From Granulicella sp. (GTDB lineage Bacteria; Acidobacteriota; Terriglobia; Terriglobales; Acidobacteriaceae), in contig DAIDGQ010000023.1 in assembly GCA_027452215.1 (NCBI GenBank), positions 780 to 64,779 of the forward strand: 64,000 nucleotides of DNA. The letters run 5' to 3'. This document shows, one piece after another, positions 56,985 through 64,000 of the stretch (the first letter of the stretch is position 1; every line of letters begins with the position of its first letter). The notes below the pieces were generated by a model. That model was given only the letters and a program-made list of their open reading frames with translations. It did not search any database and had not been told where the DNA came from. A program made the position numbers and the translations under genes.

Positions 56985-57863
56985 ATGAGACGTCCTCGTA
57001 CTCCTCTGGTGGCGCTTTTACTGCTGTGCGGGTCTGTGTGTTGCGCGGCAACTGGGGGTGAGTCGCGGCTTGTGCTGCATCGGTTGAGGCATGCGGCGAG
57101 CGATCTCGAGATTGGTGGCTCGCTGGAGGGGGTGCCGTATGGCGAGACGCGCTTTGTGTCCTATGAGGAACTGATGCGACTGCCGCAGGTGAGCGTCACA
57201 GTTTCTGACGACACGAACTTTGGTAAGACGGTGGAGATTAGCGGGGTCGAGTTAGAGAAGCTCCCGGGCGTGCTTGGTGCAAAGCGGGGTGCATCGATGG
57301 TGATTGCGCTCAGCGACGATAAGTATGCGGCGCATTATCCTGCGGCTTACTTGCACGCACATCATCCATTGCTTGTTCTCCGGGTGAACGGCAAGCAGCC
57401 AGCCAATTGGCCGCTCGGAGTGGATGGCGTGCCGATGGGGCCGTACATGGTTTCGCATGCGAGCTACACTCCTTCGTTCCGGGTGCTTTCGCATGAGGAT
57501 GAGGCGCAGGTGCCGTGGAGCGTGGTGCGGATGGATGTGCGTCGAGAGAGTGAGGTGTATGCGCCGATTGAGCCGCAGGGAGAGGCTGCTAGTGATCCTG
57601 TAGTGCAGCAGGGATATGTGATTGCGAAGCAGAGCTGCTTTCGATGCCACAGCCGGCTAGGGGAGGGAGGTTTAAAGTCGAATCGGCATTGGGGGGATTT
57701 GGCAGAGAAGGCGAAGAATGACCCGAAGTATTTCGACGCGTACGTAGTTGATCCGAAGAAGATAAATCCGAAGTCGGAGATGGCGGCGAGCCCTGAATAT
57801 GACGCGGCAACTTTGGGTGCGTTGCGGAGATATTTTGCAAGCTTTAGCGGGAGCACGCCATGA
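56985..57863 (+). CDS. Secreted protein with C-terminal monoheme cytochrome c
   Basis: Signal peptide; CFRCH with a distal Met (NPKSEM); N-domain unassigned. Confidence 0.8.
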   Translation: MRRPRTPLVALLLLCGSVCCAATGGESRLVLHRLRHAASDLEIGGSLEGVPYGETRFVSYEELMRLPQVSVTVSDDTNFGKTVEISGVELEKLPGVLGAKRGASMVIALSDDKYAAHYPAAYLHAHHPLLVLRVNGKQPANWPLGVDGVPMGPYMVSHASYTPSFRVLSHEDEAQVPWSVVRMDVRRESEVYAPIEPQGEAASDPVVQQGYVIAKQSCFRCHSRLGEGGLKSNRHWGDLAEKAKNDPKYFDAYVVDPKKINPKSEMAASPEYDAATLGALRRYFASFSGSTP

Positions 57864-58345
57864 TTGCGATACGGGTTTGCAAGATGCTGTTAGTAGCGTC
57901 GATCGCCTTCTTTTTCACGCTGGTGGTGTTGAACAATACTACGGACTTTGACTCGAACTACCAATTTGTGCGGCATGTGCTGATGATGGATTCGACGTTC
58001 CCAGGCAATCGGGGAATGTGGCGTGCGGTACGCGCTCCATGGATTCACTTGATGTTTTATGTGGGGATCATTGGCTGGGAGATATTGAATGTGGTCCTAG
58101 GCTGGTGGGGAGCGGCTGCACTGTTGCGTGGATTGGGCAAGTCTGAGGCTGAGTTCAGGAGAGCTAAACAGATCGGCGTGGTGGCGCTGACGTTGGGGAT
58201 GTTGCAGTGGTTCGTGGCTTTTTTGTGTATAGGTGCGGAGTGGTTTCTGATGTGGCAGTCGAAGCTTTGGAATGGGCAGGACGCCGCGTTCAGGATGTTC
58301 GCGGTTGAGGGCCTGGTATTGGTGGTCTTGCTGCTTCCGGAGTAG
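57860..58345 (+). CDS. DUF2165 family membrane protein
   Basis: NNTTDFDSNYQFVRHVLMMD, IG.EWFLMWQS..WNGQ..AFR; ATGA overlap with the upstream gene. Confidence 0.9.
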   Translation: MIAIRVCKMLLVASIAFFFTLVVLNNTTDFDSNYQFVRHVLMMDSTFPGNRGMWRAVRAPWIHLMFYVGIIGWEILNVVLGWWGAAALLRGLGKSEAEFRRAKQIGVVALTLGMLQWFVAFLCIGAEWFLMWQSKLWNGQDAAFRMFAVEGLVLVVLLLPE

Positions 58346-58404: not shown

Positions 58405-60114
58405 ATGCGTAAGACTAAGTTGAATAGCGGCGGCTTCTTTGTAAACGACGAAGACCGGCAGATGCTGGTTCTAGGTTACCGGGGCACGCTGCAGCCGGAC
58501 CGTCATTCGTGCGGGGGTGAGAGCGAGGCAATTGCGAGTGACGGATCAGTTTGCGTGGGATCACCTCCGCAGATGGAGGGTCTGATTGCGCCGTTGCTCG
58601 TCGGAGCGCTGCATGGACTGGACCGTCGAGTGCCAAGTCGACATAGGGCTTTAGGCGGGGAGGCGATTTCTGTCGATGGCTTACTCGAACTGCTTCTGGA
58701 GCGACTACAAGGGATTTTGACGTTGCCAGTTGCAGCTTGCCTTGCACGAGGGGAGGCCTCGACGGCCGCGATAGAGCTCTCTCTTCGAGTTGAATTTCCG
58801 AGGCTTGCTCCGCTGTTGCAGCAAGCAGTTTCTGAGTGGGTGGCAGCAACGGCGACGTTTCACGAGCGGCTGCATCGGGACAGAACTCGGTTGGCGAGGT
58901 GGCTAGGTTTTGCAACCCTTCCCCCCGTGGAATCTGTGGCGGGGACTACCTCCGATACACATCCAGGTGGACATGGGGTGCTACGGGTTATTTTCAAAGG
59001 CGGCCGCAGCGTTTATTACAAGCCTCGCTCCATAAGCGGGGAGTGGCTCTGGCATCGGCTCTTGGAAATAATTGCCGAGATGGATCCAGCATTGCGTTTG
59101 CAAGCGGGAAGGGTGCTGGAGGGTAGCAGGCCGGATCGATATGGCTGGGCGGAATCTGTATTGGTGCGAGGACACGCAGATGGCCCCGCTGATGGGATTG
59201 GATACTGGCACGCTGCCGGTGCGATGTTGTGCCTGGCGCATCATGTCAGTCTGACGGACTTGCACCTTGGCAATGTGCTTGCTACAGCGAATGGTCCTGC
59301 CGTTACGGACGCAGAATGTCTTGGAGTGCCGCGCTTACACGATGTTTCTGGCCGCAGGCCTCCCCGCGAGAATGAGCCTGTCGCATGCTTCTTTGAGGCT
59401 CTGATGTGCACTGGGCTGCTTCTGGACCGAGGTGTTCGGGACGTGCCGGATGTATCGGGGCTGTTTGGATCTGGGGGACCGGTGTCGGACTTAGGGCTGC
59501 CGCAGTGGATTTTGGAGCCTGATGGACGTTGTCGCATGATGGTGGCACCGGCGGCACTTCTGGAGCATGGCAATGCCCCGAACAGGGTGTCTATGCTTGC
59601 GGTGTTGCCCGAGCTGTTGGCAGGATATCGTCACGCTGCAGGTGTACTGTTGCGCAGTCGGAAGGCGCTCATCTCAACGGGGTCTCGCTGGCGCTTCGTT
59701 CTCGAGAGGAATCATGCGCCCCGGATAGTGATTCGCGATACGTTCCGCTATAGCCTTTTGCTGAGTCGTTTCCTGGAGCCGAGGTATCTTCGCGCGGGAG
59801 GTGTGCGACAGAGCGATCTTCGCAGAGTTCTTGAATCGGATACCTCGGCGGCGTTTCCCAAAGCACTTTTGCGCGCAGAGGTGCATGCGCTGGAAAGGCT
59901 GCATATTCCGCGATTGATTGCATTGCCTGGCACTCGAACACTTGCAAGCGGGTCGGGGCGTGCCCTGGCCAGGAACTTTGCGGCCTGCACTCCGTCAGAG
60001 GAGGTCATTCGCCGAATGGAGGAGCTATCTGCGGAGTTGGTTGAGGCGGTCCATGTTCCAGCGCTTGTGTTGGCGATGCTCCGTTCGGGGGCTCGTTCGC
60101 AGCGAGATCACTGA
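58405..60114 (+). CDS. Stand-alone LanM-type dehydratase domain (DUF4135), no LanC cyclase domain
   Basis: SDTHPGG..V....F..G..VYYKPR, YGWAE.V, TDLHLGN, P.VTDAECL, RIVIRDT..Y; the protein stops at 569 aa. Confidence 0.85.
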   Translation: MRKTKLNSGGFFVNDEDRQMLVLGYRGTLQPDRHSCGGESEAIASDGSVCVGSPPQMEGLIAPLLVGALHGLDRRVPSRHRALGGEAISVDGLLELLLERLQGILTLPVAACLARGEASTAAIELSLRVEFPRLAPLLQQAVSEWVAATATFHERLHRDRTRLARWLGFATLPPVESVAGTTSDTHPGGHGVLRVIFKGGRSVYYKPRSISGEWLWHRLLEIIAEMDPALRLQAGRVLEGSRPDRYGWAESVLVRGHADGPADGIGYWHAAGAMLCLAHHVSLTDLHLGNVLATANGPAVTDAECLGVPRLHDVSGRRPPRENEPVACFFEALMCTGLLLDRGVRDVPDVSGLFGSGGPVSDLGLPQWILEPDGRCRMMVAPAALLEHGNAPNRVSMLAVLPELLAGYRHAAGVLLRSRKALISTGSRWRFVLERNHAPRIVIRDTFRYSLLLSRFLEPRYLRAGGVRQSDLRRVLESDTSAAFPKALLRAEVHALERLHIPRLIALPGTRTLASGSGRALARNFAACTPSEEVIRRMEELSAELVEAVHVPALVLAMLRSGARSQRDH

Positions 60115-60237
60115 GTCTGATTTTGCTCTTAACCATTTGCTTGTTGTGTGCGACTCTGGGTGCATGATAGGATGCAGCCACTCCTGTGGCGCATCTACAG
60201 GCTAATTACAACATTTCCAAGCATCGAAAGGAAGATT

Positions 60238-60441
60238 ATGACAAATCTTGAGCGTCTGCAGGGAGCTGGACTGATTGAAGTAAACCATCCTCTCACTACC
60301 GATGAAATCAGCAATATCAATCAATTGAGCTCTGCCGAAGTGGATGCGATTATTTCCGTACGCACTAAGCTTGGCGACGATTTCTTTACTCGTAAAGTAG
60401 AGGTTGGTGGATCCCATCGCATGGGGACGATGGTTTTTTGA
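60238..60441 (+). CDS. 67-aa peptide, candidate RiPP precursor or small partner protein
   Basis: RBS AAAGGAAG; MTNLERLQGAGLI...LSSAEVDAIISVRTKL...VEVGGSHRMGTMVF; no Cys. Confidence 0.8.
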   Translation: MTNLERLQGAGLIEVNHPLTTDEISNINQLSSAEVDAIISVRTKLGDDFFTRKVEVGGSHRMGTMVF

Positions 60442-60475
60442 GGCGATAGAAATCTGTTCCAAGGAGCGGTACTGA

Positions 60476-61228
60476 GTGACTGCAATTCAGGATAAAACTG
60501 AAATGACTACACAAAGCCAACGGCTTCGTAATGTTCTATCGCTCGCACAAAAGGGTCTTACATCACGGATTCAGGAGGTGTGGTTCCATCCGAGGTTCGG
60601 AGAGTTATATCCAGAGTTCTTATTCGCGATGTATGGCGTAACTGTTGCATCGGCTCCTGCGATGCGTCTCGCGGCGCGTTGCTGTGCCGAAGCAGGGACC
60701 TCTGACCCCCTGAACGAGTGGCTGCAAGAGTATTATCTGGAGCACGCTTCTGAAGAGGATGATCATGCGGACTGGCTTCTCAGCGATCTGCGTTCCCTTG
60801 GCGTGGCACGGGAACGCGTCCTTGAGCGGCTGCCTTATCCGAGTATTGCAGCGCTGGTTGGTTCGCAGTATTACTGGATGCAGCATGTTCATCCGGTCGC
60901 CTATCTTGGCTTCATCGCGGTACTGGAGGCCCCTACGCATATAGAGTTTTTGCGGGAGGTGTCAGAGCGAAGCGGCATTCCTTTGGCTAGTATGTCCTGC
61001 CATGCGAGGCATGCAGAGCTTGATCTTGGACATGTGGCTGAGTTTGATGCGACTCTGGATGCACTCCCGCTGACCCCAAAGCATCGGGATCTGATCACGG
61101 TAAGCGCGATTACGACCATTGGTCACATGGAGCGAGTATTTGTGGATATACTGGAACACTTCGAGCGCATCCGCAACCCGGTAAACGCCACCACGATTTT
61201 TACCTCTGGCGATACCGTTCTCGTTTGA
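60476..61228 (+). CDS. Heme-oxygenase-like diiron oxidase (iron-containing redox enzyme family)
   Basis: RBS AAGGAG; EHASEEDDH, LG.IAVLE and HAELD.GH metal-ligand motifs; all-helical character. Confidence 0.85.
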   Translation: MTAIQDKTEMTTQSQRLRNVLSLAQKGLTSRIQEVWFHPRFGELYPEFLFAMYGVTVASAPAMRLAARCCAEAGTSDPLNEWLQEYYLEHASEEDDHADWLLSDLRSLGVARERVLERLPYPSIAALVGSQYYWMQHVHPVAYLGFIAVLEAPTHIEFLREVSERSGIPLASMSCHARHAELDLGHVAEFDATLDALPLTPKHRDLITVSAITTIGHMERVFVDILEHFERIRNPVNATTIFTSGDTVLV

Positions 61229-61253
61229 TCCCGCGTTTGACTGAGTGTGATTA

Positions 61254-63668
61254 ATGTTGACCGCCATCCCAGGTAATCAGCTGCTTCACTATCGCCTGAT
61301 TCGAAAGATCGGCGAAGGCGGCATGGGTGTTGTCTTTGAGGCGGAGGATATCCGCTTGGGACGCACGGTGGCTATCAAGCTGTTACAGCCATCGATCTCA
61401 GAGAATCCGGAAGTGAGACAGCGCTTTCTGAGGGAGGCACGCGCGGCGTCGGCACTCGACCATCCAAACCTTTGCACGATCTATACAGTAGAGGAGATGT
61501 CGGACGGCTCACTTCTATTGGTGATGGCGTGCTATCGCGGTCAGACGCTGGCAGAGTTATTGCAAAAGGGCGGCGCATTGGATGCTGCGCGCATCCGGGA
61601 TGTTGGGCGGCAAACGGCTGCCGGGTTGCATGCGGCGCACATGTCAGGAATCGTCCATCGTGACATAAAGCCAGGGAACATATTCGTTCTCAATTCTGGC
61701 ACGGTAAAGATTCTTGATTTTGGTCTGTCGCGCGTGGCGGACCAGAGTCAGTTAACTGCGCCGCATCAAGTGATGGGTACGCTGGCCTATATGCCTCCAG
61801 AGCAACTTGCGGGGGATACGATCGACCATCGAGCGGATATATGGGCGCTGGGAGCGGTGCTTTACGAGATGGCGGCGGGGCATCCGCCATTTCAGCAGTC
61901 GACGACGGCGGCGATGATGGCAGCTATCACTGAGTGCCGTTACATCCCTTTGAACGATGTTCGACCGGATCTTCCGAAGTCTATCTTTTTAGCGGTTGAG
62001 CGAGCATTGCGTTTGGAGCGGCATGAGCGCCATTCTTCTGCGGCAGATCTGCTCAATTTACTGAATGAGGAGTTGGGCATAAATCCTGTAGAAGAGAATC
62101 AGTCAGCCAGACTGGCACCGACGGCGATGTTTGCCACTTCGGGATCAAGTGCGCATTCTGCTCCGACGGATATGGTAGTGCCGCGAGCCGGCAATAGCTC
62201 CAGGCTTTACGCAGGCCGAGAAGCGACGCCCCCCGGCACCGCGCAGCGCGGAGCCGGAATGTCTATCGCAGTGCTTCCATTGCGCAACATCAGTTCTGAT
62301 CCGGAGAACGAGTATTTCAGTGACGGGTTGACGGACGAATTGATCTCTTCATTGGGGACGCTGACTGGACTGCGAGTTGTGTCGCGTACATCGGCGTTTT
62401 CATTCAAGGGTACGACGCAGAATATTCGTGAGATCGGGGAGGCTCTCAACGTCGAGGTGATTCTTGAAGGCAGTGTGCGGCGCTCGGGAGCACGAGTCCG
62501 CGTCACTACTCAGCTTACGCAGGTGCGGCATGGCTTTCCTCTTTGGTCGGCGCGATTCGATAGAGAAATGTCCGACGTATTTGAGTTACAGGATGAGCTT
62601 GCATCGTCGGTGGTATCCGCCTTGCGGGATAAACTCGCAATGAACCTGGATGTCGCCGATCTGCAGATAAGGACGCCGATGCAGGCGGACGCGTATGAAG
62701 CCTACCTAAAAGGCCGCTATCACTGGAATCGAAGAAGTCCCGAAGATATTCAGCTTGCAGGTCGCTATTTTGAGCGGGCTTTGAAATTGGATCCGCAGTC
62801 CGCTGCGGCTCATGCAGGTATAGCTGATTTTTATTGTCTGCAGGGCACTTTTGGAGGGATGAATCCGCACGACGCGTGGGCGCTTGCGCGTTCTTCTGCG
62901 CGGCGAGCCGTTGCGCTCGATCCGGGGCTACCGGAAGGGCATCTGGCCCTCGCCTCCGTCTTCCATTTTTACGACTGGGATTGGGAGAAAGCCCGATATC
63001 ACATGGTGAAGGCCATCGAACTTCAGCCACAGCGTGGAGAGTCTTATTATCTCTATGCTGCGTATCTGATGACACAGGGCTTGCTGGAAGAAGCCCTTGA
63101 GCAGACGCATCGAGGGCTCGTTTGTGACCCACTTTCTACGCCGTTACTCGCTGAAGAGGCGCTAGTTCGAGCATACCTAGGGGATCACGACAGCAGCATT
63201 TTGCTGGCGCAGGCTGCACTCGCATCTGCGCCGCACTATGTTGAACTCTATTATGCCCTGGGCATTGCACAGAATCTTGCGGGCCGTCCGCATGAGGCGG
63301 TACAGACCTTCGAACGCGGTATCGAGCATAGTCATATGCCTATTTTTATGGGGTGGTTGGTGGAAGCGCATGTACAGAATGGTAATCCGGAAAAGGCTCA
63401 TACGGTGTTTGAGCAAATGTTGGAGCTTGCGAAAAGCGGGAATGCAATGCCGCTTCCACTTGCTATTGCCGCTGCGTCTCTCGGCGACGTTGAGCTTGCC
63501 TTTACATGGCTCGAGAAGGCAGTGGCGCAGCGGGATATCCTGGTCGCATATATTGCGGTGTTGCCCAGTGTAAGAAAGCTTCATGGCGAGCCGCGCTATC
63601 AAAGGTTGCTTGACCGAATGAACCTTCGACATCCTTCCACACAGCGGAGGCACCATGTTGCTCGGTAG
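61254..63668 (+). CDS. Ser/Thr protein kinase with TolB-N-like and TPR domains
   Basis: IGEGGMG.V, AIK, HRDIKPGN, DFGL, YMPPE; SIAVLPL.N.S.DPENEYFSDGLTDELI; TPR repeats. Confidence 0.95.
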   Translation: MLTAIPGNQLLHYRLIRKIGEGGMGVVFEAEDIRLGRTVAIKLLQPSISENPEVRQRFLREARAASALDHPNLCTIYTVEEMSDGSLLLVMACYRGQTLAELLQKGGALDAARIRDVGRQTAAGLHAAHMSGIVHRDIKPGNIFVLNSGTVKILDFGLSRVADQSQLTAPHQVMGTLAYMPPEQLAGDTIDHRADIWALGAVLYEMAAGHPPFQQSTTAAMMAAITECRYIPLNDVRPDLPKSIFLAVERALRLERHERHSSAADLLNLLNEELGINPVEENQSARLAPTAMFATSGSSAHSAPTDMVVPRAGNSSRLYAGREATPPGTAQRGAGMSIAVLPLRNISSDPENEYFSDGLTDELISSLGTLTGLRVVSRTSAFSFKGTTQNIREIGEALNVEVILEGSVRRSGARVRVTTQLTQVRHGFPLWSARFDREMSDVFELQDELASSVVSALRDKLAMNLDVADLQIRTPMQADAYEAYLKGRYHWNRRSPEDIQLAGRYFERALKLDPQSAAAHAGIADFYCLQGTFGGMNPHDAWALARSSARRAVALDPGLPEGHLALASVFHFYDWDWEKARYHMVKAIELQPQRGESYYLYAAYLMTQGLLEEALEQTHRGLVCDPLSTPLLAEEALVRAYLGDHDSSILLAQAALASAPHYVELYYALGIAQNLAGRPHEAVQTFERGIEHSHMPIFMGWLVEAHVQNGNPEKAHTVFEQMLELAKSGNAMPLPLAIAAASLGDVELAFTWLEKAVAQRDILVAYIAVLPSVRKLHGEPRYQRLLDRMNLRHPSTQRRHHVAR

Positions 63669-64000
63669 AGTAAGGTCCGTTTACGACGCGAGAACGCTCC
63701 AGCTGCAGAGCTATATTGCTTATGAGACTCTGCCTGTGCCACCCGCACACAATATGCAGGATGAGACAACCACATGGCCGATGCTCGCCAACAATATGTT
63801 TAATTGTTGTACGTCTGCGGCAGCTGGACATATGGTGCATCATTGGACGGCGGCAAATCAGCATGGCGTATTTCTCACGGACCAAGATATTATTCGAGCG
63901 CATGCCCAACTGACAGGGGACCATCTGATGAATTGCGTCTCAATGCTGGATGCGCTAAAGTTTTGGCGCAAGACCGGTATCGGCGATCACCGCATTCATT
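63655..64000 (+). CDS. Putative papain-like cysteine peptidase, 3' end runs off the window
   Basis: Not in the ORF track. RBS GGAGG at 63646-63650, ATG 63655, open to the window end: MLLGR....D.RTL.L..Y....LPVPP...WPMLANN..NCCTSAAAGH...LDALKFWRKTGIG. The family call is pattern recall. Confidence 0.6.
   Translation, partial: MLLGRVRSVYDARTLQLQSYIAYETLPVPPAHNMQDETTTWPMLANNMFNCCTSAAAGHMVHHWTAANQHGVFLTDQDIIRAHAQLTGDHLMNCVSMLDALKFWRKTGIGDHRIH

Follow-up and report, generated by a model that had tools for sequence, protein, structure and literature searches.

What might a LanM-type dehydratase make when it has no cyclase and the peptide encoded next to it has no cysteine? The question is raised by the far end of a 64,000-nt stretch of DNA from Granulicella sp. 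(assembly GCA_027452215.1, contig DAIDGQ010000023.1, positions 780 to 64,779; the whole stretch is called the window here), whose assembly measures 2.5 Mb and is 59% complete. Five plus-strand genes lie there in one orientation, encoding a dehydratase (A), a small peptide (B), a heme-oxygenase-like diiron oxidase (HDO; C), a kinase with tetratricopeptide repeats (TPR; D) and a cysteine peptidase (E). They are separated by gaps of 123 nt (A-B), 34 nt (B-C) and 25 nt (C-D), with a 14-nt overlap of D and E; the open reading frames (ORFs), gaps and overlap are as given in an earlier note on this DNA, which had been drawn from the sequence alone and had proposed a candidate system for a ribosomally made peptide with post-translational modifications (RiPP).

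Recurrence of the five-gene cassette

Co-occurrence of these genes in other genomes had been set beforehand as the test on which the earlier proposal could fail. A scan of GTDB species representatives yielded 46 loci, and we counted the 41 that had at least 4.5 kb downstream of A. Genes A-B-C-D stood in this order on one strand in 41 of 41, with E also present in 39; the order A-B-C-D-E was found again in five further metagenome contexts, where the identity of A ranged from 64% down to 39%. Flanking genes were unrelated between loci. Because the same order recurs in many loci with unrelated flanks, the association is, by this measure, far above chance, and on the evidence of gene order and conservation the five genes are a conserved operon of soil Acidobacteria. 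One of the carriers, Acidipila rosea DSM 103428 (locus L026), is a cultured strain. The cassette is distributed patchily, with 13 carriers among 219 high-quality genomes in the family and 11 among 142 genera, and it was not found in three complete genomes from the same genus as the window.

A dehydratase domain without a cyclase

Gene A (58405..60114, + strand; 569 aa) encodes a stand-alone LanM-type dehydratase domain. The protein matched PF13575 (DUF4135) with an E-value of 3e-53 and had no LanC domain; against the LanM model TIGR03897 it scored 166 bits, where the cut-off is 304, and covered only model positions 88-506 of 932. A family profile of 20 members of A matched LicM2 (6st5, E 4e-25) and CylM (5dzt, E 5e-17). 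Invariant in the family are D184, H186, K206, D285, H287, N290, D302, R440 and T446, with spacings identical to those of CylM D252, H254, K274, D347, H349, N352, D364, R506 and T512. In CylM, phosphorylation requires D347, H349, N352, D364 and K274, and phosphate elimination requires D252, H254, R506 and T512 (PMC4550811). Because the invariant residues match the CylM motifs with the same spacings, A looks competent for both half-reactions, phosphorylation and elimination. The motif DLHLGN, to which the earlier note had drawn attention, does keep the catalytic D, H and N in the CylM alignment.

The homologues of A make up more than 100 stand-alone DUF4135 clusters of 508-615 aa, nearly all from Acidobacteriaceae metagenome bins, and the LanC family PF05147 was absent from A and from all of these clusters. 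The nearest canonical LanM lies at E 2e-11, and DUF4135 identity between cassette loci falls to about 31-33%. Compared with a full LanM, A has the N-terminal DUF4135 dehydratase domain with its kinase and elimination residues; it ends at 569 aa with no C-terminal LanC-like cyclase, and neither the window nor the other Acidobacteriaceae-type loci offer a core peptide bearing Cys. A LanC encoded elsewhere was sought in five carrier genomes that are 93-100% complete and none was found, although control genomes gave no match either; as the window's own genome is moreover 59% complete, this negative result carries little weight. Because there is no cyclase and no Cys, a lanthionine product is not possible for the Acidobacteriaceae peptides and has no part in the pathway proposed below; the earlier claim that this is not a standard lanthipeptide system agrees with both the LanC-free family and its Cys-free peptides.

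The peptide and its leader

Gene B (60238..60441, + strand) encodes a precursor-like peptide of 67 aa, lies inside a listed ORF of 97 aa and has the sequence AGGA 7 nt ahead of its ATG (60238). The leader domain takes up residues ~1-50 (60238-60387, +) and the tail, of the type that varies in the wider family, residues 51-67 (60388-60438, +). Peptides of the Acidobacteriaceae type have 67 aa (rarely 68), are 58-88% identical with the leader strongly conserved, and contain no Cys, so that the lack of Cys noted earlier in the window peptide extends to its homologues. No second copy of B was found in the genome.

About 45 residues at the start of B align to the RiPP leader models NF045560 and NF045559. 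What this adds to the earlier note is that the leader is no orphan: by these alignments it belongs, distantly, with a RiPP leader family modeled in NCBIfam. The match of window B to NF045560 (aroma_sacti_dom) reached 22.4 bits (E 1e-4), below the curated 30-bit cut-off, and because relatives found by profile search score 30.4-37.1 bits, we regard window B as a distant relative of the aroma-sacti/StsA leader family and do not call it a member. The radical-SAM maturase of aroma-sacti systems was found neither in the window nor in any of the 41 DUF4135-type loci.

The Acidobacteriaceae tail follows the consensus G-D-[S/G/A]-H-[R/H]-M-G-T, then three hydrophobic residues. The window peptide has Gly-Gly where most homologues have Gly-Asp. 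The Gly-Gly that the earlier note saw in the tail is therefore not conserved, and we rejected it as a cleavage site, its second Gly being Asp in most homologues. Three Korobacteraceae-type loci keep the leader and have a tail ending in ...PFKPIDFVGTCF; this variant tail (...VGTCF) is the sole type of DUF4135-linked peptide with a Cys, of which it has one. These loci keep A, C and D, and have a class I S-adenosylmethionine (SAM) methyltransferase instead of E. Gly63 and Thr64 (codons at 60424..60429, +) are the only tail residues invariant in the alignment of all DUF4135-linked peptides, the Korobacteraceae variant included, and because no other part of the tail is constant in the company of DUF4135, Thr64 would be the natural candidate for dehydration.

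The diiron oxidase

Gene C (60476..61228, + strand; 250 aa from its GTG) gave a match to PF14518 with E 4e-9 and 37.1 bits against a cut-off of 28.9. The alignment of homologues suggests that its real start is the ATG at 60503 (241 aa) and not the GTG at 60476, which would widen the B-C gap to 61 nt. In 22 sequences of the family, E94-x2-H97, E151 and H179-x3-D183-x2-H186 are invariant; we take E94, H97, E151, H179, D183 and H186 to be the three-His, three-carboxylate ligand set of an HDO, by the motif of CADD and UndA and not by superposition. The family profile matched 3dde (E 6e-16) and, weakly, AetD (E 0.004 over 39 residues). The structure model (predicted local distance difference test, pLDDT, 90) is a heme-oxygenase-like helical bundle, and Foldseek placed it closest to 3dde (the uncharacterized Sden_3740; TM 0.73-0.79), followed by TenA, UndA, CADD and HrmI, so that model, Foldseek and PF14518 agree on the fold.

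We predict that C is an O2-dependent diiron oxidase, and its type of reaction is a guess; by analogy with UndA, oxidative decarboxylation of a free C-terminus may be one option. The family has more than 300 clusters at E <1e-10, the few named sources being Bryobacteraceae and Terriglobia.

The kinase and the peptidase

Gene D (61254..63668, + strand; 804 aa) encodes a receptor-like Hanks Ser/Thr kinase with a TPR domain (Pkinase PF00069, E 8e-51, plus TPR families, TPR_END_plus being above its cut-off). The kinase occupies residues 1-290 and is followed by a linker, a middle domain (~335-460) with an invariant AVLP motif, and the TPR region (~470-804). The VAIK Lys (K42), HRD-x-K-x2-N (135-142) and DFG (155-157) that mark Hanks kinases are all invariant in the family, and no transmembrane segment was predicted. 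A complex prediction for kinase residues 330-804 with B scored 0.03, a value that counts neither for nor against binding.

Gene E (254 aa, + strand) runs from 63655 to the window end at 64000 and on to window-equivalent position 64419 (L002:5435-6199, where L002 is the remainder of the same contig and window coordinate = L002 + 58220). The protein had no Pfam or NCBIfam match. Its AlphaFold model (pLDDT 84, predicted template modeling score, pTM, 0.84) found xylellain (3ois, E 4e-8) as the top Foldseek match, then cathepsins and papain. N46, C51, C52 and H180 are invariant, and C52 stands six residues past N46, as Cys25 does past Gln19 in papain. Of the features of papain-like (clan CA) peptidases, E has the fold, the Cys-His pair and the oxyanion Gln/Asn, and lacks the third-residue Asn and recognition by the Peptidase_C1/C39 hidden Markov models. 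Protein-language features placed nearest to E a set of unnamed Atlas clusters, mostly of tailed phages (scores 0.98), a minority of which carry Peptidase_C1.

The identities proposed earlier for these proteins (a DUF4135 protein, an HDO-type enzyme, a Hanks kinase with TPR and a Cys-peptidase-like fifth ORF) all found support, from profile matches for the first three and from the papain fold of the model for the last. The catalytic or ligand sets of A, C and E are invariant, and these enzymes look active. No convincing membrane segment was found in A-E or in F, the 565-aa FHA-GAF-PP2C (SpoIIE-type) phosphatase encoded next after E on the same strand; all six proteins look soluble.

A wider family of peptide, oxidase and kinase

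An exhaustive profile search with B returned at least 396 representative clusters that share the leader of ~50 residues and differ in their tails. Nearly all of the listed ones measure 57-90 aa, and the tails include NCFL, NCFI, GIVF, SFIF, NFPV, ITHHH, HPDSFSY and VGTCF. Several of these relatives pass the aroma_sacti_dom cut-off (30.4-37.1 bits) and match the StsA-related model as well. Cluster-member names for ten leader-family peptides yielded nothing useful, most lying on short metagenome contigs, and genomic context could be read for about a dozen loci. Where an HDO-linked member had visible context, its gene directly adjoined that of a C-type HDO (identity to C 35-45%), with a D-type kinase-TPR nearby (~39% identical over its full length; kinases of DUF4135-free loci share 38-39% with D from end to end) and no DUF4135.

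These loci vary around a simple plan. Five (L059-L062 and L066) have peptide, HDO and kinase only. L056 and L069 have peptide-HDO-kinase followed by a B12 radical-SAM enzyme, which in L056 matched TIGR03975 ('RiPP maturation radical SAM C-methyltransferase') at E 5e-194; L063 has radical-SAM, HDO and peptide, with a convergent kinase; and the leader-family member P0142 has a B12 radical-SAM enzyme as its only neighbor on a short contig. In L070, kinase, peptide and HDO are followed by an S53 peptidase and a kinase-TPR, and S53 or M28 peptidases adjoin several of the DUF4135-free loci. L058 has a cyclase-AAA-TPR (cyclase-STAND-TPR) protein in the place of the kinase, and L067 and L068 are cut by contig ends. 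At L068:623-1113, which is DUF4135-free, the HDO is preceded by a tandem pair of leader-family genes for peptides of 72 and 73 aa.

Accessory enzymes go with particular tails. DUF4135 was found only with the invariant G-T near the C-terminus, the B12 radical-SAM enzyme with Cys-aromatic tails (...NCFL and ...YCIF, in L056 and L063), the papain-like E with the GDSHRMGT tail and the methyltransferase with the VGTCF tail. A conserved leader with a variable core, beside tailoring enzymes and a peptidase, is the layout of RiPP clusters in general. In a maximum-likelihood tree of HDOs, rooted at midpoint only, the 22 DUF4135-linked sequences fell behind one branch with support of 95/96, among HDOs of the three-gene type, a topology that would fit the dehydratase having joined an older peptide-HDO-kinase module just once. 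By these comparisons the real core is peptide, HDO and kinase-TPR, with the DUF4135 enzyme an add-on, and the five-gene cassette is an uncharacterized branch of a larger Acidobacteriota peptide + HDO + kinase family.

Relation to known systems

No description of this gene set was found in the papers returned by our literature search, in keeping with the earlier statement that no characterized cluster with this combination was known; none of these papers names 'aroma-sacti' either. The parts come from known families, put together on the logic of a RiPP cluster; it is the gene set itself that lacks a description there.

A is homologous to the whole N-terminal kinase/phospholyase domain of LanM enzymes such as CylM (5dzt) and LicM2 (6st5). 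It differs from them in lacking the LanC cyclase, in a very divergent sequence, in the absence of Cys from its peptide and in the company of its gene, which stands with those for an HDO, a kinase and a papain-like peptidase. LanM dehydratase domains remain active on their own when excised, and the DUF4135 enzyme CcaM (LanMbC) makes ring-free dehydro residues in dehydrazoles, the products of a hybrid RiPP pathway (PMC10676384). CcaM resembles A in that it is a DUF4135 enzyme, and its dehydro amino acids are not turned into lanthionine rings; however, its activity depends on a fused, zinc-free cyclase domain of class III type, whereas A stands alone, and CcaM is leader-independent and works with azoles made by YcaO, of which the window cassette has none.

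For the oxidase, the HO-like protein VarO, required for desaturation (a side-chain double bond) in thiovarsolin RiPPs (PMC6511847), is a genetic precedent for such a protein in a RiPP pathway. C shares its HO-like fold and the invariant ExxH...E...Hx3Dx2H with UndA, CADD, AetD and HrmI, yet none of the characterized HDOs is close to it, its closest solved relative being the Sden_3740 protein (3dde). We know of no HDO that goes together with peptides of this leader family or has a kinase-TPR as its partner, and HDO chemistry on peptides has, to our knowledge, almost no precedent.

Unlike aroma-sacti/StsA precursors, window B has neither Cys nor a radical-SAM/SPASM partner, and the names of NF045560 and NF045559 do not reflect the HDO and kinase context. 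E has the fold of papain-family clan CA peptidases such as xylellain (3ois) and their Asn/Gln-x5-Cys ... His arrangement, and differs from them in an identity of just 12%, the lack of a Pfam match, a Cys-Cys doublet at the nucleophile position, Thr/Ser in place of the third catalytic Asn and the absence of both a pro-region and a signal peptide.

Proposed pathway and alternatives

We put at about 0.55 the probability that the cassette is a cytoplasmic RiPP-like peptide-maturation pathway, with a short, linear, dehydrated and oxidized peptide as its product. We favor it because the pattern across the family is RiPP-like, with one leader, many tails, and accessory enzymes that vary with the tail. 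From the comparisons above we infer the chemical steps, their site and order, and the role of D as follows. The core of the family is a 60-70-aa precursor (a helical leader of ~50 aa and a short hydrophobic tail), an HDO and a Hanks kinase-TPR; in the window's branch two enzymes would have been added, and the tail would have become ...G-D-[S/G/A]-H-[R/H]-M-G-T-x-x-x. There, A would phosphorylate Thr64 with ATP and eliminate the phosphate to give dehydrobutyrine, C would oxidize the C-terminal tail with O2 (by desaturation, hydroxylation or oxidative decarboxylation), and E would cut off the leader. D, often with the neighboring phosphatase F, would regulate the pathway or sense its peptide.

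Several observations count against maturation. Among Acidobacteriaceae B peptides the tail is as conserved as the leader; such conservation of the tail differs from most antibiotic RiPPs. Window B stays below the cut-off of the leader model. A, the proposed dehydratase, is the least conserved and fastest-evolving gene of the cassette, each of B, C, D and E being better conserved. The kinase-TPR (once a cyclase-STAND-TPR) belongs to the invariant core and is not obviously needed for biosynthesis. E has Thr/Ser at the position of papain Asn175, 16 residues after the His, and appears from the arrangement of the genes to be translationally coupled to D and not to the peptide: with start codons picked by rule for the gap statistics, the D and E genes overlap in 38 of 41 loci. 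Finally, no exporter, immunity gene or signal peptide was found in or beside the cassette in the annotated contexts.

Some of these points sit more easily with an intracellular switch, in which the peptide stays in the cell, the O2- and iron-dependent HDO modifies its tail (as would the ATP-dependent dehydratase and the protease in the window's branch) and the TPR domain of the kinase reads that tail. Ser/Thr phosphorylation would then be passed to the FHA-GAF-PP2C protein and, in some genomes, to a partner-switching pair of STAS and anti-sigma proteins, so that the switch would report oxygen, iron, redox state or some other cue. A signaling protein is part of the three-gene core, in one locus being replaced by another (cyclase-AAA-TPR); several loci hold only peptide, HDO and kinase; no exporter accompanies these soluble-looking proteins; the tail is strongly conserved; D and E are coupled; and the FHA-GAF-PP2C gene lies within 10 kb in 22 of 41 loci, with STAS and RsbW-like genes following at the window locus. 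Yet a leader with a variable tail, a radical-SAM RiPP maturase and varied peptidases are typical of RiPP biosynthesis, only the two closest relatives retain the STAS/RsbW genes, roughly half of the loci have no FHA-PP2C nearby, and binding of the peptide by the TPR domain is putative only. We hold the switch to be possible, at clearly lower odds than maturation, with which it is compatible, since neither excludes the other. A broader proposal, which we likewise offer tentatively, is a new peptide class, phylum-wide, in which the HDO acts on the tail of a leader peptide and a receptor-like kinase or a cyclase reads the modified peptide directly, with the dehydratase, B12 radical-SAM enzymes, methyltransferases and peptidases as interchangeable add-ons.

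Two further explanations would take the peptide out of its role as substrate or the genes out of their common purpose. In an anti-phage or stress defense system the kinase would sense infection, the protease and dehydratase would act on host or phage proteins, and B would be a partner and not a substrate. The patchy distribution noted above (none of three complete same-genus genomes has the cassette) would suit such a system, as would the matches of the kinase domain to the PADLOC models PD-T4-6 and mad6, the mostly phage-derived look-alikes of E and a SocA/Panacea toxin-antitoxin-like pair inside one cassette. We nevertheless consider defense improbable: the PADLOC matches cover the generic kinase domain only and A, B, C, E and F gave none, the leader family and its radical-SAM relatives indicate peptide maturation, and most neighbors at the loci examined are genes of metabolism or housekeeping, with no evident defense island. 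Hardly credible at all is the idea that A is a decayed LanM remnant in a fortuitous neighborhood. It could draw on the shortfall against the LanM cut-off (166 against 304 bits) and on the rapid evolution of A, but more than 100 full-length clusters of 508-615 aa keep the nine catalytic residues invariant, synteny holds in 41 of 41 loci and the nearest canonical LanM is only at E 2e-11; these conservation data refute decay as far as sequence analysis can.

Surroundings and irregular copies

A pattern scan picked out a terminator-like hairpin with a T-run at 60414..60443 (+), 6 bp with a T6 run, overlapping the last codons and the stop of B. The T-run stems from the Val-Phe-stop codons. The hairpin could attenuate read-through into the enzyme genes; terminator-like sites in the region are no more numerous than the shuffled expectation, which makes this weak evidence, and a terminator after B was not retained as a feature on that account.

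Downstream, past the window end, F is followed on the opposite strand by a gene for a STAS anti-sigma antagonist and then one for an RsbW-like anti-sigma kinase, the three forming a partner-switching set (L002:6273-8966, window-equivalent 64493-67186). The position of F varies among the 22 loci that have it near the cassette, and STAS/RsbW were rejected as part of the system, since no relatives but the two closest keep them. Upstream, at 56985-58345 on the + strand and 59 nt before A, are an ORF of 292 aa that weakly matches cytochrome c and a gene for a DUF2165 small membrane protein; in other genomes neither is conserved beside the cassette. At L004:15149-18601 (and likewise in L005) the cassette is followed immediately downstream by what looks like a second peptide cluster, made up of an NTP_transf_5 protein, a pair of PqqD-like proteins, an ORF of 63-64 aa and a protein of 262 aa.

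A few copies of the cassette are irregular. One genome has a 2.7-kb insertion between the dehydratase and peptide genes (L035:11600-14330), in which a SocA/Panacea antitoxin-domain gene overlaps a 157-aa ORF; this looks like a toxin-antitoxin pair. In L048 (11669-12694, 13644-14984) the frame of the peptide gene runs on into that of the HDO and the kinase match is partial, and at G284:C1:1119450-1121079 two overlapping frames make up the DUF4135 gene. Decay or mis-assembly may explain these two copies, whose source bins are long-read ones and could contain indel errors. A complete cassette (L051, CAZZXL010000057.1), whose HDO groups with those of the Korobacteraceae type, sits in a bin labeled Acetobacteraceae (Pseudomonadota); it was either transferred out of Acidobacteriota or binned in error.

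Implications

The cassette supplies a concrete and widely conserved case of a LanM-type dehydratase without a cyclase, beside a Cys-free peptide that is its predicted substrate, and would extend the reach of the DUF4135 enzyme family beyond lanthipeptides. Behind it stands a large unannotated family (at least 396 peptide and more than 300 HDO clusters, annotated for the most part as 'hypothetical' or 'iron-containing redox enzyme') with an HDO as the constant partner of a ribosomal peptide, which offers a direct route to new enzymology, that of HDOs on peptides. Acidobacteria are abundant and poorly understood soil bacteria, and the existence of a cultured carrier makes experiments feasible. 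The constant TPR kinase raises the possibility that they use modified peptides as intracellular or intercellular signals. Should the kinase indeed read the peptide in its modified form, the result would be a signaling system of a new kind: a bacterial peptide-modification switch dependent on O2 and iron, in which add-on enzymes would diversify the signal.

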